A DNA stretch of 55,308 nt, taken from IMG/VR virus record IMGVR_UViG_3300045988_052571; one strand, written 5' to 3'. Positions 1 to 55,308 of this stretch are shown piece by piece. Position 1 is the first letter of the stretch. Each line of letters starts with the position of its first letter. The notes under the pieces were generated by a model. It saw nothing but the letters and a program-made list of their open reading frames with translations, was not told the origin of the DNA and did no database searches. This DNA comes from a virus. The translations under genes were made by a program, and so were the position numbers.

Positions 1-55
1 GTTGGTGGACGAACCGCAACGCCGGACGAACCCATGCGTTGAGATTTCGCCTTAC
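1..55. repeat. 55-bp terminal direct repeat identical to 55254..55308 (circular-contig overlap or short terminal redundancy)
   Basis: Both window ends read GTTGGTGGACGAACCGCAACGCCGGACGAACCCATGCGTTGAGATTTCGCCTTAC; an ORF reads through the junction. Confidence 0.9.
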
Positions 56-1435: not shown

Positions 1436-1598
1436 CGTTCACATCTCCTTTCGGGCGCAGGTCTGCGCCGCAGGCTCTTGTACAGCACTCGGCAATGAGC
1501 GTGGCAAACTCCCCGCGCTCGTCGGAGGTATCAGCCCCCGCCGCTTCCAGCTTCTCAAGCAGCCTTTCGCACAGATCGGGCCAACTTCTTTTCTTCAT
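1425..1598 (-). CDS. hypothetical small protein (start uncertain)
   Basis: Internal Met of ORF 1425..1643; overlaps the RT 3' end; no recognisable motif. Confidence 0.2.
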   Translation of the reverse strand: MKKRSWPDLCERLLEKLEAAGADTSDERGEFATLIAECCTRACGADLRPKGDVNDGD

Positions 1599-2739
1599 AA
1601 GTCCCTTTCCAGATGTCCGTTTCCGGCCCGGTTTGTCTACCATACTTCTGCATGGTGTCCCGGTAGATCAGGTTCAACCGCCCGCGCAGGCTTGCGCTCT
1701 GCGTGTGCGCCAGCAGTCCTTTGATGCTGGCAACGCGGCGGTCAAAATCTTCCTTGCTCATTTCCCCGGTGGCGTACATCTCCGTTATCTTCTTGACCTC
1801 TCGCTTCAACCTGCCGACGGTGGACTTGCGCAGTTTCATGTGGGTTGCGTAAATCCGCACTCCTACAAATTCAATGCCCATGCTCACCGGGCGGATGCAG
1901 GTCTTGTCGTTCAGGTCAAGGAACAATTCATCCCGCAGGAATGCTTCGATTCTCTCTTTCCACTCTTGGAGCTGTTCTTTCGTTTCGGCCAGCACAATTA
2001 CATCATCCATATACCGTATATAGTAGTGGATGTGCAGAACGTGCTTGGCGTATTGATCCAGCTCGTTCATGTAGATATTTGCGAAAAGCTGGCTTGTGAG
2101 ATTGCCTATCGGCATACCCACGTCGTATAACCATTCTTCCGGCGGCGTGTCTTGCGGTGTTCTCCCGCGCGGCAGGCCAAAGGCTTCTGCCCGACTGTTT
2201 ATCACGCTGTCCAGGAAGCGCATCAACTCCGGGTCTTTGATTCTTCTGGATAAAATTTCTAGCAGCTTGGCATGGTTTACCCGGTAGAAGAATTTGGATA
2301 TATCCAGCTTTAAGTAGTACCACTTCGCGTCTGGTTTCCGGCTGACCTGCCGCATCCAGTATTGCAGGCGTTGTGCCGCTTTGTGGCTGCCCTTATCTTT
2401 CCTGCACGCATACGAATCCTCGATAAAGAGTTTGTCGTATATCGGGTTGAGGTACTGGTATAGGCTCCACTGTACGATACGATCAGGATAGCGCAGGGCC
2501 ATCACCAAACGCTTCTTTGGTACGAAAACCCACAGCTTGCGGTACGGGCCGAGAATGTATGTGCCGCCCTGCATCTGCGCTTGGATCACAAACAGGTTAT
2601 GTTCAAACGCCGCAGTAAAAGCCAAAATCTCTTGTCTGTACCGTTTTCCTTTGCGGGCGTTATGGTCGGCCTCACAGAGATATTCAAACTCCGTTATGAC
2701 CGCCCATGCGTTTTGAATTGTCTTTATTTCACCTGGCAT
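1555..2739 (-). CDS. DGR reverse transcriptase
   Basis: 394 aa; DGR-type motif MPIGNLTSQLFANIYMNELD and catalytic YIRYMDDVIV; lies directly downstream of the TR; RBS AGAGG. Confidence 0.9.
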   Translation of the reverse strand: MPGEIKTIQNAWAVITEFEYLCEADHNARKGKRYRQEILAFTAAFEHNLFVIQAQMQGGTYILGPYRKLWVFVPKKRLVMALRYPDRIVQWSLYQYLNPIYDKLFIEDSYACRKDKGSHKAAQRLQYWMRQVSRKPDAKWYYLKLDISKFFYRVNHAKLLEILSRRIKDPELMRFLDSVINSRAEAFGLPRGRTPQDTPPEEWLYDVGMPIGNLTSQLFANIYMNELDQYAKHVLHIHYYIRYMDDVIVLAETKEQLQEWKERIEAFLRDELFLDLNDKTCIRPVSMGIEFVGVRIYATHMKLRKSTVGRLKREVKKITEMYATGEMSKEDFDRRVASIKGLLAHTQSASLRGRLNLIYRDTMQKYGRQTGPETDIWKGTYEEKKLARSVRKAA

Positions 2740-2919
2740 TTCTGCCTCTTTTCACCGTCGCCGTGTGTGACGTTACCGCCTCCACGGCAATTCAAAATTT
2801 TTCCGGGTTGCTCTCCCGGAATGGAAATGCGCTCCTTTAGACACACGCACCGACTATGACCCGTAGATCACAGCCCCCATATCCAGCGTGGTGTCGCCGC
2901 ACATAATGTGACGTGGTGT
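2740..2919 (-). ncRNA. DGR RNA spacer between TR and RT (expected to be co-transcribed with the TR)
   Basis: ORF-free 180 nt between TR and the RT start, in the position of the priming spacer in characterised DGRs; boundaries are inferred. Confidence 0.35.
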
Positions 2920-3035
2920 AAAGCGGAACGGCCCCCGATGTTCCAGTTGGAATTGCTGCGCGGATTGTTGAGGTTCAAGTTGAACAGGCCGGCGTTGCCG
3001 CCATTGTTCCAGTTGCCGCCCCGATTCGGAAGCCG
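2920..3035 (-). repeat. DGR template repeat (TR)
   Basis: 116 nt aligning without gaps to 3635..3750 and (111 nt) to 49614..49724; every mismatch is at a TR adenine (T on + strand); Asn-codon-rich frame. Confidence 0.92.
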
Positions 3036-3074
3036 AGTATAGTACATTCCCATGTATGAAAATCGGCAAACCGC

Positions 3075-3518
3075 TTATAGCGTCTTTATGTAGCCGCCCA
3101 GCAGTTTGCCTATTTCCTCGTTGTATTTGGCCCACACCTCGTATTGGTGCATCGTAAGTGGCGGCGGGTACTTGCCCCCGTGTAACTTCTTACTCGCCGC
3201 CAGCCGTACCATTCCGCGCAGTACGTCCAGCTCCACGTCGAGATTCTGGGTCGTGGTTTTCTTAAAATATTTGCGGTCGATTTCGATACTCAGGCGATAG
3301 ATCGTCAGGATGGATTTCTTCAACTCGTCTGCGAGTTCCCGGTCTTTCCGTGGAAAACTCATTGTCAACGGGTAGCCGTAGTCCACCATTTCCTCGATCT
3401 TTTCCCTAAGATGAAACGGCTCCACCTTTTTCTCGTCGTTCTTTTCTCCCGCGCCCTTTTCGGGCTTCCCCTGCTGGGGCGGCACGTCGGCTTCTTTCGG
3501 CACAGTCAACACCTCCAA
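3075..3518 (-). CDS. avd: DGR accessory variability determinant (Avd)
   Basis: 147 aa, basic and helical; C-terminal EEIGKLLGGYIK resembles the Avd signature; located between target and TR. Confidence 0.8.
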   Translation of the reverse strand: MEVLTVPKEADVPPQQGKPEKGAGEKNDEKKVEPFHLREKIEEMVDYGYPLTMSFPRKDRELADELKKSILTIYRLSIEIDRKYFKKTTTQNLDVELDVLRGMVRLAASKKLHGGKYPPPLTMHQYEVWAKYNEEIGKLLGGYIKTL

Positions 3519-3577: not shown

Positions 3578-3599
3578 TGTCCTGCGCTACCGCGCAGGA
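3578..3599. other. GC-rich hairpin downstream of VR1
   Basis: GTCCTGCGC-TACC-GCGCAGGAC: 9-bp perfect stem, about 35 nt 3' of the VR1 end. Confidence 0.5.
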
Positions 3600-3609
3600 C
3601 GACAGCTTA

Positions 3610-4716
3610 TCAGGATTCAGCGGGCAGCTCCACAAAAGCGGAACGGCCCCCGACGTCCCAGTTGGAACTGCTGCGCGGATTGCCGAGGTACAAGTAGAAC
3701 AGGCCGGCGTAGCCGCCATCGCCCCAGTTGCCGCCCCGAAGCGGAAGCCGCTCTTCTGCGCCGTTGTTGAACCAGAAATAATCGCCGCCATAGGTGGTAT
3801 CAATGCCAGTGCCAGTAAGAGCGGCATCCGGCATCAGCGCCAGTGCCATAAGCACCAGCTTTGCAGCGTCGCCCACAGCAGAACCGGCAGTAATGTCCTT
3901 GAACGAGCAGCCGCGCCCCTCGTCTTTCTGGTCGGTGATTGTGGTGTCCCACACAGCCTTGCCGGACACGACGTTCAGCTTGATGGAGCCGGAGGTCGTG
4001 CCGTTGCCGTCGGGAGTAATCAGCGCACCGTCGCTGGCTCGGATTGCTTTCCATGCTGCGCTGGAAGCGGCCGTGGACACGGAGTTGTCGGCGGCGTTGT
4101 TGTCTGCAATGATTTGCAGTTCGCCCTTGTACAGACGCAGGCCGAGCAGCCACTCCCACACATTGCCGTTCATATCCCAGATGCCGTCCATCTGGCCGTT
4201 GTGACTCCACGGCAGCGGGCCAGTACCCGTCAGCACGCGGGCGGTCTTGCCGCTGTCCTGCACGCCAGGTGCGGGAATTGCATCGTATGTGGACTCGTTC
4301 GTGTCCTTGCCGTAATTATTATTGCCCCGCGGCTCACATCCGCGCTTGTGGCACCACAGGGCAACGGCGGCCCACTCGGCCACGGTGGCCTCATGCCAGC
4401 CCGTGCCGTTCGCCTTGGTCTTGCTGGCGAACCAGTCAAAGTTCTGGCTTACGGTGGGATCTTCTGCGGGCAGGCTGTATGCGCGCTCGTTGTAAACCTT
4501 GGTCTGGTATTTGCCAAAGTAGAAGCCTGCGATTTCCTTGCCGTTCACACGGAATGCCGGGTGAATGTCGGTGCTGGTGGTGGACAGAACATCACACAGG
4601 CGGAACGCAGGAATCCACACAAAGACAGACGGCATACCCTTGTCGTCCATCAGAATTTTGTTCTTGGGAAATGCGCACTGCAATGCAAATGCGGCTGCCT
4701 CGAAATTGTTTGCCAT
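3610..4716 (-). CDS. DGR target protein 1, FGE/C-type-lectin-fold receptor-binding protein (distal tail-fibre module)
   Basis: 368 aa; GWHEATVAEWAAVALW and GNVWEWLLG motifs; C-terminus LPLRGGNWGDGGYAGLFYLYLGNPRSSSNWDVGGRS is VR1. Confidence 0.9.
   Translation of the reverse strand: MANNFEAAAFALQCAFPKNKILMDDKGMPSVFVWIPAFRLCDVLSTTSTDIHPAFRVNGKEIAGFYFGKYQTKVYNERAYSLPAEDPTVSQNFDWFASKTKANGTGWHEATVAEWAAVALWCHKRGCEPRGNNNYGKDTNESTYDAIPAPGVQDSGKTARVLTGTGPLPWSHNGQMDGIWDMNGNVWEWLLGLRLYKGELQIIADNNAADNSVSTAASSAAWKAIRASDGALITPDGNGTTSGSIKLNVVSGKAVWDTTITDQKDEGRGCSFKDITAGSAVGDAAKLVLMALALMPDAALTGTGIDTTYGGDYFWFNNGAEERLPLRGGNWGDGGYAGLFYLYLGNPRSSSNWDVGGRSAFVELPAES
3635..3750 (-). repeat. DGR variable repeat 1 (VR1)
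   Basis: 116 nt; 13 mismatches to TR, all at TR adenines. Confidence 0.92.
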
Positions 4717-5716: not shown

Positions 5717-6025
5717 TTACGTTGCTTCCACCAGCGGGAACGTGAAGCGCAGGAGTCCGGCGTTCACGCTGTCGCGGGTCAGGCTCACGGTCTGGCTCCC
5801 GGCCAGTTCACCGTTGCGGTCATACACACGAACCGCCGTGATGGTGTCTTTCTGGCCGGACGACGGAGCGTTGACGTACACCACGACTGCGTTCCCGACA
5901 ACCTGCTTCGAGTTGATTTCGCCGTCTTTCCATGTACTGCCGTTAAGCTGGTACTGGAAGCGGCTCACCGCCCGCAGCAGTTCTTCGCGGCGGGCTTTCA
6001 GAAAAGTATCTGTGAAAAAAGCCAT
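5717..6025 (-). CDS. hypothetical tail-fibre-module protein
   Basis: 102 aa; RBS GGAAAGGAGAAAG upstream. Confidence 0.5.
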   Translation of the reverse strand: MAFFTDTFLKARREELLRAVSRFQYQLNGSTWKDGEINSKQVVGNAVVVYVNAPSSGQKDTITAVRVYDRNGELAGSQTVSLTRDSVNAGLLRFTFPLVEAT

Positions 6026-14483: not shown

Positions 14484-14623
14484 TCCTCCGCCACCTCCTC
14501 GTTAATCTCCACCATTTCACGCACAGGGAGGTTGAGGTAAAAGTCTGCTCCCGTGTGCGTGACGGAGGCCAAACCTACCGCCGCCTTTCTGATTTCTTTG
14601 TAACCGCCTTTTACTCGAAAAAA
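14462..14623 (-). other. -1 frameshift extension ORF of the tail assembly chaperone (slippery T TTT TTC at 14617..14623)
   Basis: The minus strand reads GAT TTT TTC GAG TAA. The -1 frame stays open for about 50 codons (FFRVKGGYKEIRK...EEWRKIRN) to TAG 14462..14464, overlapping the tape-measure start. Confidence 0.55.
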
Positions 14624-23740: not shown

Positions 23741-23756
23741 CGGCTACTCCCTCCCT

Positions 23757-23987
23757 TTACAGGTCGCGGGGAACAAAATGGTACATCCTGTTGCGCCCCG
23801 CCTTTTTTCTCGAAAGTTCTTCAACTTTGTTCGACCAATACTCAATGCGTTTCCCGATTTGGGTTACATCGGCGTAGGTCAGCATTCGGTTTCCAATCTG
23901 GTAGCTTTGGCCGTGCGTAACCTTGCGTTCCGCTTCCAGCCATGCGTCAAGCTGCGATTGTGCAGTTTCCAGTGTGATTCCCGCCAT
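23757..23987 (-). CDS. head-tail joining protein, gpW-like
   Basis: 76 aa between TerL and the portal, as in lambda. Confidence 0.55.
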   Translation of the reverse strand: MAGITLETAQSQLDAWLEAERKVTHGQSYQIGNRMLTYADVTQIGKRIEYWSNKVEELSRKKAGRNRMYHFVPRDL

Positions 23988-23990
23988 TGG

Positions 23991-29167: not shown

Positions 29168-29175
29168 TTCACCCC

Positions 29176-29236
29176 GGACACCTTGACGGGCCGCACCGTA
29201 AAGCGACCCGATCCCGCCACCCCGGCAACAGCCGGG
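29176..29236 (+). repeat. intergenic structured repeat, copy 1 (TTGAC subtype)
   Basis: GGACACCTTGACGGGCCGCACCGTAAAGCGACCC...CCCGGC-AACA-GCCGGG. Confidence 0.75.
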
Positions 29237-29800: not shown

Positions 29801-29810
29801 CCCCCCCGCC

Positions 29811-29871
29811 GGATGCTCTAGCAGGGTTGCACCGTAAAGCAGCCCCGCCCCATCTACCCGGCCCCGCCGGG
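29811..29871 (+). repeat. intergenic structured repeat, copy 2 (divergent, with compensatory changes)
   Basis: GGATGCTCTAGCAGGGTTGC-ACCGTAAA-GCAGCCC...CCCGGC-CCC-GCCGGG. Confidence 0.7.
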
Positions 29872-31118: not shown

Positions 31119-31129
31119 ACCACAGCAGC

Positions 31130-31186
31130 GGACACCCCAGCAGGGCCGCACCGCACGAAAGCGGCCCCGCCCCAGCCCACACGGGC
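31130..31186 (+). repeat. intergenic structured repeat, copy 3 (CCAGCA subtype)
   Basis: GGACACCCCAGCAGGGCCGC-N11-GCGGCCCCGCCCC, then GCCC-ACAC-GGGC. Confidence 0.75.
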
Positions 31187-32005: not shown

Positions 32006-32014
32006 TCCCGCGTC

Positions 32015-32065
32015 GGACACCTTGACAGGCCGCACCGCAAAGCGACCCGATCCCAGCCGCAAGGC
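32015..32065 (+). repeat. intergenic structured repeat, copy 5 (TTGACA subtype)
   Basis: As copy 4, but hairpin 2 is GCC-GCAA-GGC. Confidence 0.75.
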
Positions 32066-33887: not shown

Positions 33888-34262
33888 GTGAACGAAATGC
33901 AGACTTTTTATCCCTGGTGCGTGGTTGCCGCCTTTTCTGACGGTTCCCGGCTCACGTTCGGCGGTTCTACCGAAGAGCAGGCCCGCAACGCAATGGAAGC
34001 CGCCAGCAACGAACACGGTGAAATATCCTGGTGGGATCATGTCACCGACACGAATTATGTTGACGGTCAGTATTACCAGCTTTTGCCCGATTTGCCCACG
34101 CTCCACGTCGTCGATCTCGCAGGGTATGACGGCCCGGTGGATGCAAACGGTTTTCCCGCTGGCCTGCCGGACAAAATCGCCCGGTACGCCGTGGAGCATG
34201 GAGCCGCCGAGGATGAAGCCCAGGTCATTGTCAGGATGCACGAAAGGTGGCGGCGCACATGA
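33888..34262 (+). CDS. hypothetical protein
   Basis: 124 aa; GTG start; RBS GGAGG. Confidence 0.45.
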   Translation: MNEMQTFYPWCVVAAFSDGSRLTFGGSTEEQARNAMEAASNEHGEISWWDHVTDTNYVDGQYYQLLPDLPTLHVVDLAGYDGPVDANGFPAGLPDKIARYAVEHGAAEDEAQVIVRMHERWRRT

Positions 34263-34531
34263 ACATTCTCCCGGAAGAGTTGCAGGCCATTTTGAAGAAA
34301 GGCCTATCCGATACGTTCCAGCGTGATCAGATTATTTCGGAGGACGAACGCCTGCGCAGTCTTGAATCCGCTGTGCAGAAGAACATCTGCACGCTCCACG
34401 ATCTCCCGCCTGACGATGTTGTTGTTTCTGGCCGCAAGGATGCGCCCGGCGTGTTTACTTTCATCATCACAGAACGAACGCCGGAAATTGTATTTACTTT
34501 TGACGCAGACTCTTTTCACGAACACGAATAA
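34259..34531 (+). CDS. hypothetical protein
   Basis: 90 aa; ATGA overlap with the upstream stop; RBS AAAGGTGG. Confidence 0.45.
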   Translation: MNILPEELQAILKKGLSDTFQRDQIISEDERLRSLESAVQKNICTLHDLPPDDVVVSGRKDAPGVFTFIITERTPEIVFTFDADSFHEHE

Positions 34532-34534
34532 CGA

Positions 34535-34578
34535 AAACTCCCTCGACGGAATTGCCCGCCGGGGGAGTTTCTTTTGTT
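34535..34578 (+). terminator. intrinsic terminator at the end of the rightward operon
   Basis: AAACTCCC ... GGGAGTTT stem followed by CTTTTGTT. Confidence 0.5.
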
Positions 34579-34776
34579 CCTATTCGCAAGTTGTTTTTCC
34601 AGGGAGCTTTTCGCTCTCGCGGAAGTCCCCACTTTTACGCGCGCACAAATCCGGCATCATCATAGCCTTTAATGTTTTTCCGGCACACGAATTTTGCCGC
34701 CGCCTGTCTGGGGCTTTTCATGGCGTTTTGATAGATTTTCTATCACGAATCTGCCTTTGTGCTTTTCCTGTTGCTT

Positions 34777-35280
34777 TTAATCGCGCGCGTCATACGCGCG
34801 CAAGAGGATTTCTTCTGCCATTGGCATTTCGTCCAGCATCGGGCCGAGAATGGCAAGTGCGACCTTTTCTTTCCGCTGGGCGGTGATCTCCTTTACTCCC
34901 AGTTCCGCCGCAATGCTCGTCCAGCCTCTTTGTAACGATTTTTGCGTGTAAACGTACCGCCCGCGCAGAATGATTTTGTAATCACCGTTCATGCGGTCTA
35001 ATTGGTCACGAATATTATCCCTGTCAGCCAGCAAAACGCCCCTGCGCACCAGCAGGCGGTTTTCTGTGCGTTTGTATTCCTCGCTGCTGTCTGCCAGCTT
35101 CACTGCCAGCGACGCGGTGCTGTCGCCCGGAGTGGTTCCATGCGGCATCCCGTCCATGTCCATGCCCTTGATGGGGTTGTAGCGATCCTGCAACTCTGCA
35201 AGTTCTCTGTTCACGTCATAGAGCTGTGCTTCAATCCCGCCCAGGTAACGCAAAATCATTTTCGCTTCTTCTGCCTGCAT
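34777..35280 (-). CDS. sigma-70 region-4-like HTH protein (candidate late-gene regulator, RinA/ArpU-type role)
   Basis: 167 aa; C-terminal ILRGRYVYTQKSLQRGWTSIAAELGVKEITAQRKEKVALAIL resembles sigma region 4; last gene of the leftward early operon. Confidence 0.45.
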   Translation of the reverse strand: MQAEEAKMILRYLGGIEAQLYDVNRELAELQDRYNPIKGMDMDGMPHGTTPGDSTASLAVKLADSSEEYKRTENRLLVRRGVLLADRDNIRDQLDRMNGDYKIILRGRYVYTQKSLQRGWTSIAAELGVKEITAQRKEKVALAILGPMLDEMPMAEEILLRAYDARD

Positions 35281-35304
35281 TTTACCCTCCCGCGTTTTGC
35301 TCTG

Positions 35305-35922
35305 TTAGAATTTCCCGAAAATCTGGCCTGCGCCCGGTTCTGCTGCTACCTCGACGCTTCCGCCCATGATCTCCGCCGCCTTGCGGCCAAGCATGGTATG
35401 CGCCGCATACTCACCGTCAACGGCCCATTCCAAGAACTGCTCATAGTTCCTGCGAACCTCTTCCACGGCTGCATTGATCTGCGCCCGGTCGTAGCCCATT
35501 TCGTTTAAGCCCTCCACGAAATAGCGGATCGCCAGGTCGCCAGCATCCCGGCGTTCTGCCAGCACGTCTTTTTCATGCTGCTTTCGCGGGTACTCTCCCG
35601 CCGGGAGAACAAACGACCTGTCCAGCATCGGTTCCGTGCGCTCTCTAAGTAACTGCCGCGCGCGGGTCTGCCCCAGCACGGCGCGCTCTGTTGTGTACAC
35701 GTCGGCGCGGTTTTTCATGGCCGCCGTCAAACGGTCAAGCGCGTCCTTGTCAAATTCCAGCACATCAAAGGCCGCAATGGTGATGCAGTAGCGCAGCACC
35801 TCGTCTGTGGCCTTTCTGTTATCCACGATATTCTTTTTCGTGCTGGTTTTCGATGTCGCGCAACGGCTGACAGAATTTCGCACCATCATGCGCTGTACTG
35901 CCGCGTTCGGTCTAGCTTTCAT
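35305..35922 (-). CDS. hypothetical protein
   Basis: 205 aa. Confidence 0.5.
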   Translation of the reverse strand: MKARPNAAVQRMMVRNSVSRCATSKTSTKKNIVDNRKATDEVLRYCITIAAFDVLEFDKDALDRLTAAMKNRADVYTTERAVLGQTRARQLLRERTEPMLDRSFVLPAGEYPRKQHEKDVLAERRDAGDLAIRYFVEGLNEMGYDRAQINAAVEEVRRNYEQFLEWAVDGEYAAHTMLGRKAAEIMGGSVEVAAEPGAGQIFGKF

Positions 35923-44134: not shown

Positions 44135-44674
44135 TCATTCCGCTTCCCGGATGATCCACACCCGATGTTCACCGTACCCGCTCCATGCCAGCGCATTTTC
44201 GTGGGTGTCAACAGCCACGTCGAGGTGGTAGCCCTGCACACCTGCGCCCTTGTCTTGCACAATACGGATGCCCACGCCCTCTATGTACAAAACCGTTCCA
44301 TAGGGGAGAAGTGTTTGGTCTGCCGCCACCGTCACGTCCGCCTGGATCGGCTGACCGCTGGCAGTGATTCCGTGTCCCTCTCCGCAAATGTGTTGATACT
44401 GCTCCGTGCAGTACGCCGTACACATAAACGTCCCGGCTTCTTCCAGATAAACCTTGCCGTCTGCCATCGAATCAAGCCGATCCTGCAAGGTGGAAATGGT
44501 TTCTTCGTCCCGGATCGCGCGGTCAGACCAGTTCTGAAACCTGCTTGCGTAGATGTCGCGCTCCTGCGTGAGCTGCTGCACTCTGGCGTTCAGCACCGCG
44601 CCGTTGAATATTGCCAGTCCAAGTGCTGTGCTGCTCAATGCGAGAGAGAGCGTCGGCAGCATAGGCTTTCTCAT
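44135..44674 (-). CDS. 3D-domain (MltA/RlpA-like) cell-wall protein with an N-terminal signal/TM
   Basis: 179 aa from Met10 (ATGA overlap); FMCTAYC...GITASG...VAAD...PYGTVLYIEGVG...DKG pattern. Confidence 0.6.
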   Translation of the reverse strand: MRKPMLPTLSLALSSTALGLAIFNGAVLNARVQQLTQERDIYASRFQNWSDRAIRDEETISTLQDRLDSMADGKVYLEEAGTFMCTAYCTEQYQHICGEGHGITASGQPIQADVTVAADQTLLPYGTVLYIEGVGIRIVQDKGAGVQGYHLDVAVDTHENALAWSGYGEHRVWIIREAE

Positions 44675-46404
44675 GATTTCACTTCCTTTTCTCCGAACCA
44701 TTTCTTTGTTACGGCGATAGGGAACTCTTCAATCTCAGAGGCCCACGCCGCCGTCCCGGCTCCGTATGTTGTTTCCCACACCAGCGGAAACCCGCCGATG
44801 CCGTCAAACAAACTGCCCAGCTTTGCGCCGCCGCCCATGTACGGTTTCATTTTCTGGACGATCCAGAACCATTGCGGAAGAGCAATGCTATTTCCCAATG
44901 CTTTGTACCGTGGACTGTCTGCCGCCTTGTGCTTTTTCCCTTTGGTGTCCGTCCATTCTCCAATGTCCGTCCATCCGTCCGGGTAGCCTTGCAGACGTTC
45001 GCACTCTGTCGGTGTGAGGCGGCGCACGATCCAGGCAATCTTCTTCGGCAGTTCCATGTGTTCTATTGCAACCGCCTGCGCATCGTGCATCGTGTCCAGT
45101 GTGCCAGACTTTTCTTTTGTGACCGACGCATGAGCCTGTCCGTTCCCGATTCCATAGCTTTCCATGACCTGCGGCCCGGAATGTGATGCTATGCTCCGGC
45201 AGGTGATAGATGTGGCCGTATCTCCCGTCACGGCTCCATTGTACAAGTCAACTGCAATAGCGGTGTAGTCCGTGATTCTGCTTTCGTGGTCGCCCGTAAT
45301 AGTCGGCACTATCTTGCCGTCGCCATTTCCTCGTGCATCAAACACTTTCACAACGGCGGATGGCGTATGCGCGCTTTCAGCCAAAGGATGGCACGGGTCG
45401 CCCCAGTGCGGGTTACTTCCGTTCTGCGGGCTGGTTAGTTGTGTAGTGTCAAACGGCAGTGCATCAAGAACAATCGGGTCATGGCCTTTTGCATTTGCCC
45501 TCAATGTTCCCACCACGTCATACGACACATCCATCTTGCCGCCGCCCTGGTCGTTCAAGACCGGAACTTTGTACGCTACCGCTGGACGGTCAACTGTGTT
45601 CAATGTGTAGCTTCGATTTTCCTTTACGCCCAATCCGTTTGCGCCAGCTGTTTCTGAACGGTCAATTATATTTCCCGCTAGGCAATAGACCGGCTGGAAG
45701 AGCGTCTGGTCTTGTAGCGTCGATAGCGTCCCGGTTTTCTCCGTCTGCACCAGCGCACCCTTGCCGCCGCCTGCACATCCCCCTCTAATTTTCAGGGTAT
45801 ATGCGTTCCGCCCCCCCTCTGCCACCACTCGATCATTTCCAGCAGGGCGGTTTCCAGCAGTTCTTGCAGCTTCTTTCCACGTCGGGATGCTCTGGTCAGG
45901 ATGCCCCGGCAGGCTTTCGCGCTCAAATAGTATTTCTCCGGCACGTCCGCCTGCAAAATCCACGACAAGAGCGATACGCTTTCTTCTCTGGGGGACTCCC
46001 CAATGTTGAGCGTCGAGCTGTCGCCAAGCAAGGCTCCATCCGGCTCCGGCGATTGCTCCGGCTTTGCTCCATCTGCCCCCCCTCGGAGGTCTAGGAACAA
46101 TAGCGTCTGGCTGTTCCACGCGGGCAAGTTCTTCCAGAACGGCGCGGAAGTCCTCTCCGCCGTTGGAGCTGAACGCTCCTGGTACATTTTCCCAAATAGC
46201 GAAAGTTGGGTACATTCCATTTGTCGCTTTCCTCATTTCCCTGATGATTCGCACGGCATCAACAAAAAGACCAGACCGCCCTCCGGCAAGTCCCGCCCTG
46301 CGTCCCGCAATGGACAAATCCTGGCACGGACTGCCGAACGTGATGCAATCCACAGGCTCTATCTGGTCGCCGTGAATCTTTGTAATATCGCCAAGGTGGA
46401 TCAC
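44671..46404 (-). CDS. DNA (cytosine-5) methyltransferase with apparently circularly permuted motif order
   Basis: 577 aa; GSPCQDLS (IV), ENVPGAF (VI) and QRRKRIALV (VIII) are N-terminal; RRLTPTECERLQGYPDGW (IX) and ALGNSIALP (X) follow; LFDGIGGF (I) and ASEIEE (II) come at the extreme C-terminus. Confidence 0.75.
   Translation of the reverse strand: MIHLGDITKIHGDQIEPVDCITFGSPCQDLSIAGRRAGLAGGRSGLFVDAVRIIREMRKATNGMYPTFAIWENVPGAFSSNGGEDFRAVLEELARVEQPDAIVPRPPRGGRWSKAGAIAGAGWSLAWRQLDAQHWGVPQRRKRIALVVDFAGGRAGEILFERESLPGHPDQSIPTWKEAARTAGNRPAGNDRVVAEGGRNAYTLKIRGGCAGGGKGALVQTEKTGTLSTLQDQTLFQPVYCLAGNIIDRSETAGANGLGVKENRSYTLNTVDRPAVAYKVPVLNDQGGGKMDVSYDVVGTLRANAKGHDPIVLDALPFDTTQLTSPQNGSNPHWGDPCHPLAESAHTPSAVVKVFDARGNGDGKIVPTITGDHESRITDYTAIAVDLYNGAVTGDTATSITCRSIASHSGPQVMESYGIGNGQAHASVTKEKSGTLDTMHDAQAVAIEHMELPKKIAWIVRRLTPTECERLQGYPDGWTDIGEWTDTKGKKHKAADSPRYKALGNSIALPQWFWIVQKMKPYMGGGAKLGSLFDGIGGFPLVWETTYGAGTAAWASEIEEFPIAVTKKWFGEKEVKS
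45792..46220 (-). CDS. protein-like ORF in the +1 frame inside the methyltransferase gene (possible overprinted gene)
   Basis: 142 codons; ATG with GAGGA 9 nt upstream; balanced composition with a helical segment VPEKYYLSAKACRGILTRASRRGKKLQELLETALLEM. Confidence 0.25.
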   Translation of the reverse strand: MECTQLSLFGKMYQERSAPTAERTSAPFWKNLPAWNSQTLLFLDLRGGADGAKPEQSPEPDGALLGDSSTLNIGESPREESVSLLSWILQADVPEKYYLSAKACRGILTRASRRGKKLQELLETALLEMIEWWQRGGGTHIP

Positions 46405-49218: not shown

Positions 49219-49395
49219 TTATTCCCAGCCATCACCGCCGCCGATAAAGACGGCTATCACCAGCAGGAAGAGCCAAACCAGGGCGACGATGCCCCAGCTA
49301 AAAGCCGTAGCGGACACCCAGCAGAGAAATGCTGTTACCGCCAGTGCTATGACGAACAGGACAATGAGCATCACGCACAGAACAATGATCGTCAC
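49219..49395 (-). CDS. small two-TM membrane protein
   Basis: 58 aa from a GTG start (RBS GGGAGGAAAAAG); IIVLCVMLIVLFVIALAV and WGIVALVWLFLLVIAVFI. Confidence 0.45.
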   Translation of the reverse strand: MTIIVLCVMLIVLFVIALAVTAFLCWVSATAFSWGIVALVWLFLLVIAVFIGGGDGWE

Positions 49396-49538
49396 TTCTT
49401 TTTCCTCCCGCGTTTCTTCTTGTGCTGCTGTGTCTGCCGTGCCTTTGTGCGGTCTTTGCACGGTCGGCAGTACATCGAAACCAGCGTATCGCACCGACGG
49501 TATGCTGCGCCGTCGTGCCTGCGTTTTGAGCAGTTCAT
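49392..49538 (-). CDS. Cys-rich basic 48-aa peptide
   Basis: MNCSKRRHDGAAYRRCDTLVSMYCRPCKDRTKARQTQQHKKKRGRKKK; RBS AAAGGAAG; GTGA overlap with the next gene. Confidence 0.3.
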   Translation of the reverse strand: MNCSKRRHDGAAYRRCDTLVSMYCRPCKDRTKARQTQQHKKKRGRKKK

Positions 49539-49596
49539 TCGCTTCTTCCTTTCCGCCTCGCTACCGCTCGGCTCACAGCTTGCCAGCGAACAGCTT

Positions 49597-50829
49597 TCAG
49601 CGTTTCTTGAAATAAGCGGAACGGCCCCCGATGTACCAGCTGGAATAGCTGCGCGGACTGCCGAGGTACAAGTCGAACAGGCCGGCGCTGCCGCCATCGT
49701 CCCAGTTGCCGCCCCGAAGCGGAATGTATTCGCCCTCCGTCGCGTCCACAGCACAGACCGCCTCGCCCTCACCAGCAAACAAGCCCAGTTCCATAAGCTG
49801 GTCGCTCCAACATAACATCCGCACGTCTTCCCAGCTCTCAAAGTTGGCGCGTCCATGCTGCGGTTTCTCTGTGGTGAACTTGATGCCGTCCATTGCATCG
49901 ACGTAAACCTGGTCGCCGTTGCTATCCACGATGGGCTTCCATCCGTTGCCGCAGGTTGTCAGGTCTGTTTCCGGCAGGGCTGCGTTGTTGTTCTCCGCTG
50001 CCCAGAGCGCGCCGTCCTTGATCCGCAGACCCCGGACGATCTCTAAGACGTTGCCGCACAGGTCATGTACACCTGTCGGCGTGTGGTCGTGCGTCCAGGT
50101 AGCAGGGCCAGAACCAGTCAGCGTCTTGTTGCTGTCCTTGACGTTCACACCGCACTCTGTCGGGTCGGCGTGGTACTTGCCGCAGTTGGTGTTACCGTGT
50201 GGCAATGTGCCGTTCTTCCAGCTAAGACAGGCCAGCAAGCCCCACTCCGCCGCCGTCATGCAGTGCCATCCCTCGCCCTTGGCGAAGCAGGCATCTGCAA
50301 ACTTGTCTGCGGTAATGTCGGTGACAGGCTCCATGTAGGGCAGGCTGTACGGTTTACCGTTAATCATGGTGTTCTCGTAGACCGAAATGTAAATCTCGTC
50401 GTATACCTCGCCGCCGATGATGAACGCCGGGTGCGGCTTGTCCTTTCCGCCGCGGAACAGGTCTTTGTCGTTCATGCGGCGGAAGCGGTGCATGATGCTT
50501 GGAATGCCTGCGTTGTCGTAGATTGCAACAACATCCCACTGTGCGCCGGGGGCTACCTCTTCCGGCTCGGTCAAAGGCTTTACCGAATTTGCTTTCTCGT
50601 AGGTTTCGCAGCTCTCGCAGTCGTCATTGCATCCCACACATTCCGGCTCTCCAACGCCCTCTTCCGGGTCACGGCAGCCGTCCCGGAAGATGGTCGGCAG
50701 CACATCAAAGCTGATCTTGTGCGCCTCCTTCACATACTTCAAGAACTGCTCTGCCTGGGCCAGAACTGCGGCATCCTCACCCTCGGCTTTCATGCTCATG
50801 GGCGGCCAGTTGATCTTTACTTTCGCCAT
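49597..50829 (-). CDS. DGR target protein 2 (paralogue of target 1, FGE/C-type-lectin fold)
   Basis: 410 aa; GWHCMTAAEWGLLACLSW and HDLCGNVLEIVRG motifs; C-terminus IPLRGGNWDDGGSAGLFDLYLGSPRSYSSWYIGGRS is VR2. Confidence 0.88.
   Translation of the reverse strand: MAKVKINWPPMSMKAEGEDAAVLAQAEQFLKYVKEAHKISFDVLPTIFRDGCRDPEEGVGEPECVGCNDDCESCETYEKANSVKPLTEPEEVAPGAQWDVVAIYDNAGIPSIMHRFRRMNDKDLFRGGKDKPHPAFIIGGEVYDEIYISVYENTMINGKPYSLPYMEPVTDITADKFADACFAKGEGWHCMTAAEWGLLACLSWKNGTLPHGNTNCGKYHADPTECGVNVKDSNKTLTGSGPATWTHDHTPTGVHDLCGNVLEIVRGLRIKDGALWAAENNNAALPETDLTTCGNGWKPIVDSNGDQVYVDAMDGIKFTTEKPQHGRANFESWEDVRMLCWSDQLMELGLFAGEGEAVCAVDATEGEYIPLRGGNWDDGGSAGLFDLYLGSPRSYSSWYIGGRSAYFKKR
49614..49724 (-). repeat. 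DGR variable repeat 2 (VR2)
   Basis: 111 nt aligning to TR 2921..3031; 13 mismatches, all at TR adenines. Confidence 0.9.
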
Positions 50830-51115
50830 GCTTCTTTTTCCTTTCTTCTATCTGGCGGCGAATTGTTTCTTTCGCCTTTCTTTTTCTGTCGTCCTCCCGT
50901 GCGCGCCACACGCCGTAGGAAATCCCCGCGGCATCCGCCGCCCGAACGTCCAGCGTCAGGGCATCCGGGGGCGGCTTTCGGTATCCATTCCCACGGGCGG
51001 GGCCGGGGATGTTCCTGCGGGCAGAGCAGCAGGGGCAGTATTTGCTTGCCGGGTTTTCGGCTACAAATACCGTTCCGCAGTCGGCGCACTTTTTCAGCAC
51101 TCCCGTTACTGCCAT
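50777..51115 (-). CDS. zinc-ribbon protein with a basic C-terminus
   Basis: 112 aa; CADCG...CPCC. Confidence 0.45.
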   Translation of the reverse strand: MAVTGVLKKCADCGTVFVAENPASKYCPCCSARRNIPGPARGNGYRKPPPDALTLDVRAADAAGISYGVWRAREDDRKRKAKETIRRQIEERKKKHGESKDQLAAHEHESRG

Positions 51116-51279
51116 TTGCCGCGCCTCTCTTCCTGGGCCTTTTTGTATGCAGAGAACCAGCGGTCAAGGGCTTCTTTCTGCCGGACGTACCGACGGCGAT
51201 TGCGGATCATCGTTACGATGGTGTACGTTACCGTGCAAGCCGCCACGACGATCACTGCCAATGTCGTAAACTCATTCAT
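51106..51279 (-). CDS. single-TM 57-aa protein (not in the ORF track)
   Basis: MNEFTTLAVIVVAACTVTYTIVTMIRNRRRY... Confidence 0.35.
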   Translation of the reverse strand: MNEFTTLAVIVVAACTVTYTIVTMIRNRRRYVRQKEALDRWFSAYKKAQEERRGKWQ

Positions 51280-51442
51280 TGGCTGCCTCCTTGCCCGCCG
51301 GGTCGGGCTGTTCTGCCTCCGGCTCCATAGACTTTGCCAGCTTCATGCCCTGGGCCAGCCCCGCCAGGTAGATTTTGGCCGTCGGATTCTCCGCCAGCAC
51401 CTTGGCGATCTCTTCGCTCTTCATCTTCTCTTTCTCGCTCAT
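51272..51442 (-). CDS. hypothetical 56-aa protein
   Basis: Met17 of ORF 51272..51490; RBS AAGGAG. Confidence 0.4.
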   Translation of the reverse strand: MSEKEKMKSEEIAKVLAENPTAKIYLAGLAQGMKLAKSMEPEAEQPDPAGKEAANE

Positions 51443-51456
51443 GTTATCACGCTCCT

Positions 51457-51522
51457 TGTTGTCCGCCCCTGCCCGCCGTGCTATAATCATGGCAGGCGGA
51501 AAGGGGGTGATTTCAAATGCCT
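51457..51522 (+). promoter_or_regulatory. promoter/RBS cassette, copy A
   Basis: TTGTCC, 17-bp spacer, TGCTATAAT (51479-87), RBS AAAGGGGGTGA, then ATGCCT; about 60 nt repeated at 52060..52125. Confidence 0.6.
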
Positions 51523-51726
51523 ACATATAAAATCGTCACGAAAGACAAGGGCCTTACCAGTTCCCAGATCACGGAGGTTGAAAATCTCGTGGATTCTTCC
51601 TACGCAATCGCCACTCCAAACCCCCGCCTTGGATTTATCCATGTTACGCCGCTTGGCAACTATTCAGCAAAAGACCTGCCCGTGTTGCCTTATGGCCTGA
51701 CCTACGAAGAAAACCCCGGAACCTGA
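51517..51726 (+). CDS. hypothetical moron-like protein
   Basis: 69 aa with its own promoter and terminator; antisense to the early operon. Confidence 0.55.
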   Translation: MPTYKIVTKDKGLTSSQITEVENLVDSSYAIATPNPRLGFIHVTPLGNYSAKDLPVLPYGLTYEENPGT

Positions 51727-51733
51727 TTGTCCG

Positions 51734-51765
51734 CGCCCCGCTTGTGCAAGAAGCGGGGCGTTTTT
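51734..51765 (+). terminator. intrinsic terminator
   Basis: CGCCCCGCTT-GTGCAAG-AAGCGGGGCG followed by TTTTT. Confidence 0.8.
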
Positions 51766-52059: not shown

Positions 52060-52125
52060 TGTTGCCCGCCCCTGCCCGCCGTGCTATAATCGTGACAGGC
52101 GGAAAGGGGGTGATTTTGTATGCCT
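52060..52125 (+). promoter_or_regulatory. promoter/RBS cassette, copy B
   Basis: TTGCCC, 17-bp spacer, TGCTATAAT (52082-90), the same RBS, then ATGCCT. Confidence 0.6.
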
Positions 52126-52335
52126 ATCTGTCCTCGTTGCGGTTCCGCTGTTGGTTCTGACGCTCGATTCTGTTCCAACTGCGGCGCACCTCTGAATGTC
52201 AGTTCTGAAAACTTCTGCACCAATCCTGATTGCAAACGTCATAAGGAACATTTTTCTTTTGCTCCCGGCGTTCGTTTCTGCGACCAGTGCGGAAAGCTGA
52301 CGACTGACGGCAAAAAGATTGAAGCTCTGATTTGA
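52120..52335 (+). CDS. double zinc-ribbon moron-like protein
   Basis: 71 aa; CPRCG...CSNCG...CTNPDC...CDQCG. Confidence 0.55.
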   Translation: MPICPRCGSAVGSDARFCSNCGAPLNVSSENFCTNPDCKRHKEHFSFAPGVRFCDQCGKLTTDGKKIEALI

Positions 52336-52744: not shown

Positions 52745-52841
52745 TCGGAACTTTACAGTGCCATTATAGTCAATTCTCGGAACATTGTCAATGGTTTTCT
52801 GGGTTTCTTTTGTTGATTTTCGGAACTTTATTTGCTATAAT
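52745..52841. promoter_or_regulatory. divergent switch region: three TCGGAAC sites and an extended -10 for the repressor gene
   Basis: TCGGAAC at 52745, 52777 and 52820; TGCTATAAT at 52833-41; TACAGTGCCA at 52754-63 is shared with 28530-39. Confidence 0.5.
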
Positions 52842-52871: not shown

Positions 52872-53372
52872 ATGACCATTGGCGAAAGAATTAAAGTCCT
52901 CCGTAAAGAGAAAAATCTTTCGATGGAGGATTTTGGCTCTGTAATCGGTATGGGCAAGTCTGCTGTCAGCCGTATCGAAAACGGGGTCAACGGAACAACG
53001 GATCAAACTATCCGCTCCATCTGCCGCGAGTTCGGGGTCAATGAACGCTGGCTCCGCACTGGCGAGGGAGAGATGTTCGAGCAGACACGGGAAACTGTAC
53101 TGGATCGGCTGGCCGCCGAATACAGCCTGGACAAAGAGCAGGTCTCGGTGATTGAGAACTTTCTTGATCTGTCCCCGCAGGAACGCACGCTGTTCCTTAC
53201 ACAGATGCGCAAGGTCTTTGGCGGGCCTGCCGTACAGCCGCCCCGCCGGGTGGACGTGTCCGACGATGTGGCCGCTGCCGTTGTCAACGTGCAGGACGAG
53301 GTAGCCCGGTACAACGCCGAGCAGGCCGACGAGGCCGCCAGTGGGGGAAAAGAATCTTCTTCCACAGGTTAG
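52872..53372 (+). CDS. XRE-family (CI-like) repressor
   Basis: 166 aa; HTH IKVLRKEKNLSMEDFGSVIGMGKSAVSRIENG. Confidence 0.75.
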   Translation: MTIGERIKVLRKEKNLSMEDFGSVIGMGKSAVSRIENGVNGTTDQTIRSICREFGVNERWLRTGEGEMFEQTRETVLDRLAAEYSLDKEQVSVIENFLDLSPQERTLFLTQMRKVFGGPAVQPPRRVDVSDDVAAAVVNVQDEVARYNAEQADEAASGGKESSSTG

Positions 53373-53471: not shown

Positions 53472-53694
53472 GTGTATGGCAAATAAAAACACCCCATCTT
53501 CTCCGCAGAAAAGACAGGGCGTTTTGGAACGAGTTGAACCTAAACGTGCAACTCTACTTATATAAATGGCTCCCAGATATGATATTTCGGAAATGAATTT
53601 AACTTTTTGACTGTTGAAAGTGTGGAAAGATTTATTTTCCCCAGAACTTGCAACGGCTTGCAACAAACTTAAAACTACTTGAAAGGTGGTATTT

Positions 53695-55308
53695 ATGCCT
53701 CGCAAAAAGAAACTGCAAGAGGTAGGCGGACTGCGGCTGGTGGCGTACTATCGCTACTCCAACGGCGGCCAGCAGACCGAGCAGAGCATTGAGGGCCAGC
53801 GCCGGGACTGTGAGGCCTACGCCAAAGCCCACGGCTACAAGATCGTCCATGAGTATATCGACCGCCACATTTCCGGCAAGAGCGACAGCCGCCCGGCGTT
53901 CCAACAGATGATCTCCGACAGCGACAGCCACCTCTTCGACGCTGTGATCTGCTGGAAAACAGACCGCCTCGCCCGCAGCCGCTACGACTCCATCATCTAC
54001 AAGACCCGCCTGCGGAGGAACGGGGTCAAGATTCTGTATGCCGCCGAGACGGTGGTAGACGGCCCAGAGGGTATTATCATTGAGGGCTTGATGGAATCCC
54101 TGGCCGAGTATTACTCCGCCGAACTGGCGCAGAAACTCCGCCGCGGCCAGCGGGAAAGCGCGCTCAAGTGCATTGCCCTGGGCGGCAACCGTAGCTTTGG
54201 CTACGACATCGGGCCGGACAAGCACTACTGCATCAACGAGAAGCAGGCCCCCGCCGTGCGGTACATCTTTGAGCAGTACGCCGCCGGGGCTACCGCCGCC
54301 GACATCGTGCGGGAACTGACCGCCCGCGGCTACCGCACCAGCCGTGGCAATCCGTTCAACAAGAACTCTATCTGCCGGATCATCACCAACGAGATGTATC
54401 TTGGCGTGTACAAATACGCCGACATCCGCATTGAGGGGGGAGTGCCTGCCATGATCGACCGGGAGCTGTTCAACCGCTGCCAGACCCAGCTTGCCTTTAA
54501 CCGCGCCCACGGTGGCGGCAAGGGTGCGCCCAGGGCTGACTATGTGCTTGTTGGTAAACTGGACTGCGGCCTGTGCGGTCATGCCATGAAAGGAGCCAGC
54601 GCCACGGGCCACACCGGGAGCAAGCACTACTACTACACCTGCACCCAGCACGTCGAGAAGAAGTGTCCCAAGACCTCCATTGAAAAAAACTATCTGGAAC
54701 AGGTCATCGTGGACGGCGTTGCAAAGTACGTCCTTACCCCGGAAAAGATTTCTCAGATTGTGGACTGCATGATGGAATTGCAGGCCAAGGAGCAGGAGCC
54801 GAAAGGCAACCCGGAGAAGGACGCTCTGGAAGCAGAGCTGGCCGAGTGCCGCCGCAAGCAGAACAATATCCTTGAGGCCATCGAAGAGGGCGGCAGCGCC
54901 CGCCTTGCGGCCCGCCTGCGCGCTCTCGAAGAACAGGAAGCCCAGCTTACCTTTGCTCTGGGCGAGATCAACAACGCCCCCGCGCCGCCCCAGTTCAGCC
55001 GGGAAGCGCTCACGTTCATGTTCGAGCAGTTCCGCCGGGAAGAGGACGAGGTGGACGAAGAGTACCGCCGCCGCATCCTGGATACGTTCGTTTCGTCCAT
55101 CCTGCTGTACGAGGATCGGGCAGAGGTCAAGTTCAATATAACCGACCAGAAAACCGGGGACTTTGAGTGGGTGATTTTACCCATTTCTGCAAACAAAAAG
55201 CCCCCGGAAGATGACGATATAACGTCAAATTCCGAGGGTTCTACCGCGTTGCGGTTGGTGGACGAACCGCAACGCCGGACGAACCCATGCGTTGAGATTT
55301 CGCCTTAC
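53695..55308 (+). CDS. int: large serine recombinase (integrase); ORF open at the window end and completed at 56..100
   Basis: ATG 53695 with RBS GAAAGGTGG; my translation MPRKKKLQEVGGLRLVAYYRYSNGGQQTEQSIEGQRRDCEAYA...DAVICWKTDRLARS (resolvase catalytic domain), recombinase domain, Cys-rich CGLCGH...YYYTC, coiled-coil; absent from the ORF track. Confidence 0.9.
   Translation, partial: MPRKKKLQEVGGLRLVAYYRYSNGGQQTEQSIEGQRRDCEAYAKAHGYKIVHEYIDRHISGKSDSRPAFQQMISDSDSHLFDAVICWKTDRLARSRYDSIIYKTRLRRNGVKILYAAETVVDGPEGIIIEGLMESLAEYYSAELAQKLRRGQRESALKCIALGGNRSFGYDIGPDKHYCINEKQAPAVRYIFEQYAAGATAADIVRELTARGYRTSRGNPFNKNSICRIITNEMYLGVYKYADIRIEGGVPAMIDRELFNRCQTQLAFNRAHGGGKGAPRADYVLVGKLDCGLCGHAMKGASATGHTGSKHYYYTCTQHVEKKCPKTSIEKNYLEQVIVDGVAKYVLTPEKISQIVDCMMELQAKEQEPKGNPEKDALEAELAECRRKQNNILEAIEEGGSARLAARLRALEEQEAQLTFALGEINNAPAPPQFSREALTFMFEQFRREEDEVDEEYRRRILDTFVSSILLYEDRAEVKFNITDQKTGDFEWVILPISANKKPPEDDDITSNSEGSTALRLVDEPQRRTNPCVEISPY
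55254..55308. repeat. 55-bp terminal direct repeat (second copy)
   Basis: Identical to 1..55. Confidence 0.9.

Follow-up and report, generated by a model that had tools for sequence, protein, structure and literature searches.

Evidence for a second, distal target gene of a diversity-generating retroelement in a gut prophage

The retroelement cassette and its two target genes

The viral genome sequence IMGVR_UViG_3300045988_052571 from IMG/VR (55,308 nt; hereafter the window, meaning the whole stretch analysed) carries a diversity-generating retroelement (DGR) whose single template repeat (TR) is matched by two variable repeats (VRs), one in the adjacent target gene 1 (T1) and one in a remote target gene 2 (T2). 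Here, our analysis indicates that the remote repeat, VR2, is very probably a true target as well, currently maintained by the one DGR that the phage has, a reading to which we assign a probability of about 0.93. The cassette is arranged on the minus strand in the order T1, Avd, TR and reverse transcriptase (RT). The RT (394 aa; 1555..2739, minus) matches RVT_1 at 5.7e-23 and contains the IGNLTSQ and YMDD motifs. Its best match in the PDB is bRT of phage BPP-1 in the bRT-Avd complex (8UB7_A, 1.1e-47), compared with 1e-18 for group II intron RTs; NCBIfam holds no DGR-RT model, and the score against its group II model is far below the cut-off. The open reading frame (ORF) of the accessory gene avd (3075..3518, minus) begins with a TTG at 3518, while the start called in relatives gives a protein of 142 aa. 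Avd matches PF22296 bAvd with 75.1 bits (cut-off 40) and weakly matches the BPP-1 Avd structures 4DWL and 8UB7_B. Searching the window identified no second RT or Avd, and Rfam at its gathering threshold gave no match at the DGR or at T2.

T1 (368 aa; 3610..4716, minus) is the last gene of the tail/baseplate module, whose Pfam matches in the related locus L031 (relatives are designated here by L numbers) include the tape measure, GpU, Baseplate_J and Tail_P2_I. T2 (410 aa; 49597..50829, minus) encodes a TaqVP-like variable protein with a C-type lectin (CLec) fold of the FGE subtype, and its codon-position GC content is gene-like (0.57/0.44/0.75). The two proteins are 34% identical over 342 aa (E 5e-49), and both fall in phrog_2889. 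A longer plus-strand ORF that overlaps T2 (50065..51330, 421 aa) was rejected as a gene, given its codon-position GC of 0.71/0.50/0.55 and the homologues that T2 has.

The fold of T2 was recognised solely through PHROGs, a PDB sequence search and structure prediction. The AlphaFold2 model (67 sequences, pLDDT 76, pTM 0.76) matches TaqVP of a Thermus aquaticus prophage (5VF4; PMC6328139) with a Foldseek E of 6e-30 and TM scores of 0.67/0.72, and phmmer recovers the same protein at 1e-45. TaqVP is thus the best match of T2 in both sequence (31% identity) and fold, and shares the FGE-subtype CLec with a C-terminal VR; it differs in being the sole, cassette-adjacent target of its own DGR, and T2 has about 90 aa extra at the N-terminus. 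The extra region is modelled with low confidence as beta-hairpins and a helix, followed by a disordered Cys/acidic linker (residues 37-79) that is missing from some orthologues. The N-terminal 100 aa have no paralogue in the window and no domain match, and no transmembrane (TM) or signal-like segment was detected in T2. Viral fold matches in BFVD are CLec-bearing phage proteins, many of them machine-labelled as tail-fibre.

Template and variable repeats

The TR (2921..3031, minus) is 111 nt long with 26 adenines, and an identical copy is present in L031-L036. VR1 (3636..3746, minus) occupies the 3' end of T1, and VR2 (49614..49724, minus) the 3' end of T2; a scan of both strands of the whole window revealed these three copies only. 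When aligned without gaps on the coding (minus) strand over the 111 nt, each VR differs from the TR at 13 positions, and in both cases 13/13 are TR adenines. For VR2, the substitutions comprise 8 A>G, 4 A>T and 1 A>C, and the hypergeometric probability of all 13 falling on A is 3.5e-10. VR2 equals the TR at 85/85 non-A positions, although T1 and T2 are only 34% identical overall. Immediately beyond both ends of the repeat, VR2-TR identity drops to background. The homology of VR1 to the TR reaches slightly further, by about 4 nt on the 5' side and 1 nt on the 3' side; differing homology boundaries have already been noted in multi-target DGRs (PMC5758913).

These results bear out the first-pass annotation of the window, which had described a 13-mismatch, adenine-only alignment of VR2 with abrupt ends in a paralogue of target 1, and had named non-A differences (of which there are zero) as a ground for refutation. 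Its statement that only one of the two targets adjoins the RT likewise agrees with the single cassette found.

Read in the target frame, the TR consists of 12 AAY codons plus one AGC and one ATC. VR2 corresponds to T2 residues 370-405, within which 14 variable codons (residues 371-400) could be recoded into about 2e15 proteins. These codons lie within the C-terminal ligand-binding region of a TaqVP/Mtd-like C-type lectin protein.

Variation of VR2 among relatives

Comparison with relatives revealed that VR2 varies where the TR has adenines. In a set of 10 T2 orthologues, every TR-A position (26/26) is polymorphic, compared with 11/85 of the remaining VR positions and 148/1122 positions of the gene outside the VR, and in a 16-protein T2 alignment the variable columns coincide exactly with the 14 A-containing codons. 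At the level of 90%-identity protein clusters, T2 is represented by 2,957 distinct sequences and T1 by 3,632. This diversification was shown between assemblies, not within one sample. In L033, where both the RT protein and the TR are identical to those of the window, VR2 carries 12 differences from the TR, all at A and in a pattern that is not the window's.

Further support for a direct link between the TR and VR2 comes from relatives whose TR has itself changed. The TRs of L004 and L011 carry 3 and 6 non-A changes, respectively, relative to the window TR, and both sets are repeated in their own VR2s, which share a contig with the respective TR, at distances of 9.2 and 8.1 kb, and differ from their own TRs only at A (13/13 and 8/8). 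Over a longer distance, VR2 of the window and VR2 of Dulem virus 37 (GenBank PP511443.1, here L001) are identical at 56/80 non-A sites, while each matches its own TR at 85/85 and 80/84 of such sites; on these sequences, the pattern reads as concerted evolution of VR2 with its own TR. T1 shares 51-52% identity with its orthologues in Dulem virus 37 and Faecalibacterium phage Lagaffe, T2 shares 61% with its Dulem virus 37 orthologue, and T1 against T2 gives 29-37% across the phages compared, so the two targets are old paralogues. The heterogeneity at the A positions of VR2 that the first-pass annotation had asked for is therefore strong across public assemblies, and its proposal that one TR diversifies two proteins in trans gains from the copying of TR changes into VR2 in L004 and L011 and from the A-only differences.

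L031, L032 and L035, assembled in three different studies, have a VR1 identical to the window's (locus 8994), and VR2 of L032 (18269) is identical too, whereas L033, L034 and L036, which have the same RT and TR, differ.

Target-side cis elements

The TR, VR1 and VR2 have in common a GC-rich 3' end, GGGGGCCGTTCCGCTT. Beyond it, the targets share a periodic motif, CTG-N4-CTG-N4-CTG-N5-CTG, on the minus strand: 3603..3627, 3' of VR1, and 49576..49600, just 3' of VR2, where it overlaps the T2 stop codon. Within the window this motif is confined to the two VR flanks, giving two occurrences where 0.00 are expected, and the TR is without it. It also lies between the VR end and a GRNA-loop hairpin at every target examined in this DGR clade (L001 20283-20307 and 31383-31407; L016 11018-11042; L029 5803-5827; the 3' flanks of L017-L023). 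The coding sequences with which the motif partly overlaps differ from one another, so that its presence is not accounted for by protein coding, and it may represent an additional target-recognition element. CTG periodicity is not mentioned in the hairpin passages of Guo et al. 2011 (PMC3240598), which describe a hairpin with a 7-10 bp GC stem and a GRNA loop located 4-34 bp from the VR.

Downstream of the motif, VR1 is followed by a hairpin with a perfect 9-bp GC-rich stem and a GGTA loop (3579..3600, minus; -14.7 kcal/mol, z -4.8). The corresponding hairpin of VR2 (49555..49572, minus) is imperfect, with a GRNA-type loop and a tandem G.A in the stem (GCC-GA-GC / GGTA / GC-GA-GGC); its folding energy is -3.5 kcal/mol with DNA parameters (z +0.65) and -8.9 with RNA parameters (z -1.7, marginal). 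This sequence, the tandem G.A included, is invariant in 10 close relatives, and the same interrupted-stem design is found in L029, a 52%-identical orthologue, at about 5830-5850 with a GTGA loop (z -3.4). In Dulem virus 37, both VRs are followed by the four CTGs and an identical, perfect GATA-loop hairpin. We regard the VR2 hairpin as a candidate structure and do not claim it as proven.

Circular genome, integration site and prophage map

The first and last 55 nt of the window are identical (1-55 = 55254-55308), and this exact terminal overlap shows that the genome is a circle of 55,253 bp. A large serine recombinase (555 aa) is encoded at 53686..55308 on the plus strand, its ORF running over the junction as far as position 100; in L002 and L032, the orthologous proteins match Resolvase, Recombinase and Zn_ribbon_recom in Pfam. 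Just upstream lies an XRE-type repressor (52872..53372, plus; phrog_8/phrog_4, with an HTH_3 match in L002).

Integrated copies allowed the attachment site to be placed. In the 87.7-kb scaffold L002, smpB and the tmRNA gene are followed by the integrase, the repressor and, further on, T2. The other prophage end is seen in L031 and L035, where tape measure, baseplate, T1, Avd, TR, RT, M15 peptidase, a 131-aa ORF and XhlA give way to host genes. Phage homology breaks at CCACCAAC, which is the 3' end of the host ssrA gene and equals window positions 1..8. These positions (1..8 = 55254..55261, minus) are the crossover core of attP, inside the 3' end of the integrase ORF, and attB is formed by the last bases of the host tmRNA gene, beside smpB (L002 5532-5880; L031 about 12740). 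Because integrated copies lose phage homology at CCACCAAC exactly there, the window junction is attP, and the linear window is therefore the prophage map. From the flanking genes and the relatives, the host (55% GC) is probably one of the gut Clostridia; a scan of species-representative genomes returned only two distant T2 relatives, at 49-52% identity.

It follows from this map that 8,449 bp separate the TR from VR2 in the circular form, as opposed to 46,582 bp after integration. In the prophage, the distance to attR is 1.5-4.7 kb for the DGR cassette, and that to attL about 4.4 kb for T2. The earlier estimate of about 8.4 kb across the genome junction thus agrees with the measured distance, and its conditional suggestion that an attP next to the integrase would put the targets at opposite prophage ends, 45-50 kb apart, is borne out by the mapping in L002, L031 and L035 (46.6 kb).

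Three further observations concern the integration site. The integrase ORF shortens from 555 aa in the circular form to 536 aa in L002, where the phage is integrated. The contig ends fall on attP, as expected if the assembly graph forked between the excised and integrated forms. In L033, the interval from XhlA to the integrase, which is where attP would lie or adjoin, has gained an insertion (12619-14506) with an rve-family transposase and a Gp49/HTH (HigBA-like) pair.

Proposed mechanism and alternative origins of VR2

The analysis shows how the repeats are arranged, that they differ at A only, which homologies the proteins have, how the prophage is laid out, that VR2 co-varies with the TR and that it is hypervariable in the population; the following scheme extends them by analogy with the BPP-1 paradigm, from which the RNA and cDNA steps and the role of the cis elements are inferred. 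The avd-TR-RT unit (3518..1555, minus) would be transcribed, and RT together with Avd would copy the TR RNA into cDNA while misincorporating opposite adenines. This cDNA would then replace the homologous 111 nt in two recipient genes, in VR1 at a distance of 0.6 kb and in VR2 in trans, either over 8.45 kb in the circular or replicating genome or over 46.6 kb at the opposite end of the prophage. The recipients may be marked by the common GC-rich end GGGGGCCGTTCCGCTT, by the four-CTG flank absent from the TR and by the GGTA-loop hairpin, perfect at VR1 and carrying a tandem G.A at VR2.

Two other histories could place a TR-like repeat in T2. VR2 could be a relic, in which an old duplication of T1 carried along a copy of the VR, the A-biased differences were inherited and the DGR no longer writes there. 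Such a history would accommodate the paralogy of T1 and T2, the degenerate VR2 hairpin, the four non-A mismatches of the Dulem virus 37 VR2 to its own TR and the recurrence of an identical VR2 in several assemblies, but we consider it extremely improbable: the duplication is old (34% identity between T1 and T2 against 51-61% between orthologues), yet zero non-A differences separate VR2 from the present TR, VR2 follows the TR polymorphisms of L004 and L011, VR2s of genomes with the same TR differ at A sites only, and all 26 A sites are polymorphic vs a background of about 13%. Alternatively, VR2 might be renewed indirectly, with VR1 or co-infecting phages serving as the donor for homologous recombination or gene conversion, and not by direct cDNA homing. 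The 111 nt of VR1 and VR2 are near-identical and could support recombination, and 7 identical substitutions are common to both VRs of the window; however, the within-genome identity of VR1 and VR2 at A sites (16/26, 13/26 and 11/24) shows no excess over cross-genome controls (13/26 and 13/26). VR2 also keeps 5' and 3' boundaries of TR homology of its own, as well as a separate target-type 3' flank, and trans action of avd-TR-brt was shown experimentally for BPP-1 (cited in PMC5758913). Indirect renewal is accordingly very improbable, albeit less so than a relic.

Several points weigh against direct and current writing of VR2 by the DGR, or against parts of its identification. With DNA parameters, the stability of the VR2 stem does not reach significance (z +0.65), and in BPP-1 a weakened hairpin stem strongly lowered homing (PMC3240598). 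The activity of VR2 in this particular genome is deduced from the sequences of relatives. Identical VRs occur in the window, L031, L032 and L035, which come from different studies. At the level of protein families, T1 and T2 have no family in Pfam or NCBIfam, and Avd scores 74.8 bits against NCBIfam NF033474, slightly under the cut-off of 80. The identical VRs across studies imply that the DGR is episodic and not continuously active, as has been argued for Lagaffe-type phages too (PMC11792537); taken together, the sequences point to a stable, widely distributed lysogen lineage with episodic DGR activity.

Neighbourhood and possible role of T2

T2 belongs to an early operon of closely spaced minus-strand genes that adjoins the lysogeny module and is separate from the tail module. 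The operon is headed by a putative sigma-70-like early promoter (52763..52791, minus), a pattern match to TTGACA-17-TATAAT at 12/12 positions, which lies about 1.9 kb upstream of T2, is the promoter-like site closest to it on that side and diverges from the XRE repressor and the serine integrase. Small ORFs, including one for a zinc-ribbon protein, are found upstream of T2, and downstream are a 48-aa peptide, a 58-aa two-TM protein, an HD-domain protein (HD hydrolase) and a DNA methyltransferase (44671..46404). The 48-aa ORF (49392..49538, minus), directly 3' of T2, encodes a Cys-rich basic peptide with a C-X12-C ... C-X2-C pattern, and the first 12 codons of this ORF show only synonymous differences between relatives. 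Its stop overlaps by 4 nt the 58-aa ORF (49219..49395, minus), for which L002 and L032 both have a gene call. This arrangement suggests that the two ORFs are a real, translationally coupled pair. The position of T2 among early and lysogeny-proximal genes, and the Cys-rich and two-TM mini-proteins that follow it, had been described in the first-pass annotation and are as stated there.

What T2 does can be approached from its relatives and from its position. That T2 is a second virion-borne receptor or adhesion protein stands close to an even chance: its closest characterised relatives, Mtd and the phage tail-fibre CLec tips in BFVD, are virion proteins, and no effector domain was found in T2. 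The odds are somewhat more clearly against the idea that T2 is instead a cytoplasmic, early-expressed hypervariable binder deployed in conflicts with the host or with other phages, where it might bind, for example, variable defence proteins or proteins of a rival phage, with no role in receptor binding by the virion. This tentative alternative draws on the place of T2 in the early operon, 1.9 kb from the predicted early promoter and with the HD hydrolase and DNA methyltransferase downstream; on the equal placement of the Lagaffe paralogue gp40 ahead of the exonuclease, Gam, Erf and SSB genes; on the absence of a TM or signal-like segment; and on reports of distal second VRs near counter-defence genes (PMC12629997). 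In L029 and L030, moreover, T2-lineage genes have no RT within about 5-10 kb. Gene position, however, is weak evidence of function, and TaqVP itself has no assigned function. No virion proteomics of Lagaffe was found in PMC5883640.

A broader formulation, in which T2 and its lineage form a class of DGR targets of old origin and separate conservation, always situated away from the cassette in the early/lysogeny-proximal region and acting as intracellular, early, non-virion hypervariable binders, we consider rather unlikely. Were T2 intracellular, one phage DGR would simultaneously diversify a receptor-binding protein and a protein of the counter-defence type.

The surrounding early region has several other repeats. 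Between the early promoter and T2 lies a 67-nt direct repeat with 91% identity (51457-51523 and 52060-52126, plus), each copy of which contains an extended -10 promoter-like TGcTATAAT, a Shine-Dalgarno sequence and an ATG leading into small plus-strand ORFs of 69 and 71 aa. These ORFs are antisense to the early operon, and a plus-strand terminator-like site is located at 51733-51761. Elsewhere, four Rfam RAGATH-5 (RF02685) matches above gathering (51.6-64.2 bits; 29174-29223, 29809-29859, 31128-31181 and 32013-32062, plus) coincide with the direct-repeat families D2-D4 and are intergenic in the replication/early region.

Comparison with known systems

The closest mechanistic reference is BPP-1 (mtd-avd-TR-brt), with which the window shares the gene order target-Avd-TR-RT, an RT closest to bRT, the Avd family, A-only differences between TR and VR, and a VR at the C-terminal CLec binding face. 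A GC-rich 3' end followed by a downstream GC hairpin with a GRNA loop (PMC3240598) is present in full at VR1 of the window and in part at VR2. The two systems differ in the number of targets, one in BPP-1 and two here with the second distal; in their proteins, a three-domain Mtd trimer there and TaqVP-like single-domain targets here; and in their hairpins, which in the window lie about 33-41 nt from the VR end, after four CTG repeats, with a tandem G.A in the VR2 stem.

In overall layout, the window resembles Faecalibacterium phage Lagaffe/Lagaffe_CP, in which a myovirus-type tail module is followed by T1, Avd, TR, RT, lysis and lysogeny genes, and a second FGE/CLec target (gp40), some 7-8 kb away from the RT, opens the early region that follows the lysogeny genes. 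Two VRs are reported in Lagaffe_CP, CP11 and Lelie, with a population signal at both (PMC11792537). The proteins of Lagaffe are, however, only 33-52% identical to the window's targets, an IS30-type transposase takes the place of the serine integrase, and the second VR is internal, with about 110 aa after it.

Dulem virus 37, from lemur gut, is the closest GenBank phage for T2 (61% identity) and has the same layout of T1, Avd, TR, RT and lysis genes, then T2 and a serine integrase. It differs in that T2 lies on the RT side of the integrase, in the 4 non-A mismatches of its VR2 and in a GenBank record that does not annotate the targets as DGR targets; Dulem virus 37 carries an undescribed two-target DGR. 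In that record, the targets (23202-24281 and 34247-35392) are labelled 'CalU17 biosynthetic pathway protein' and the TR-containing ORF 'enediyne biosynthetic pathway protein', labels that look like annotation errors.

Non-adjacent DGR targets inside prophages, and the ability of avd-TR-brt to work in trans, were documented by Wu et al. 2018 in Nucleic Acids Research (NAR; PMC5758913). On the points by which such targets were recognised there, VR2 shows A-to-N differences only and is not part of another DGR, and T2 lies within the att-bounded prophage. As in those prophages, both targets are within 50 kb of the RT, one adjacent to it and one not; the present genome falls outside that survey, and its prophage and circular geometries are mapped explicitly here. 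The window further resembles the phages of PMC12629997 in being a temperate gut phage with a distal second VR a few kb from a DNA methyltransferase. The DGR-carrying inducible prophages of that study, which include four double-VR species, are mostly from Bacteroidota, whereas the host here, at 55% GC, is probably a member of the Clostridia. The arrangement itself is thus already known, and the locus fits the published distal second targets of prophage DGRs (PMC5758913; PMC11792537; PMC12629997); the novelty that the first-pass annotation had attached to it was overrated.

Implications

This locus leaves the current picture of DGRs unchanged. Its value is as a clear and well-supported example of two genes being written in trans from a single TR, in which the distance between donor and recipient switches between 8.45 kb (circular genome) and 46.6 kb (integrated form). 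T2, for its part, represents an old lineage of paralogues found among the early genes of several divergent gut phages. As a side observation, the conserved target flank of CTG repeats and hairpin merits follow-up, and with it the imperfect stem that is conserved next to VR2. With thousands of natural variants of T1 and T2 already in public data, the phage offers a convenient system for studying when homing takes place in the life cycle, how far an imperfect hairpin is tolerated and what distal DGR targets do.

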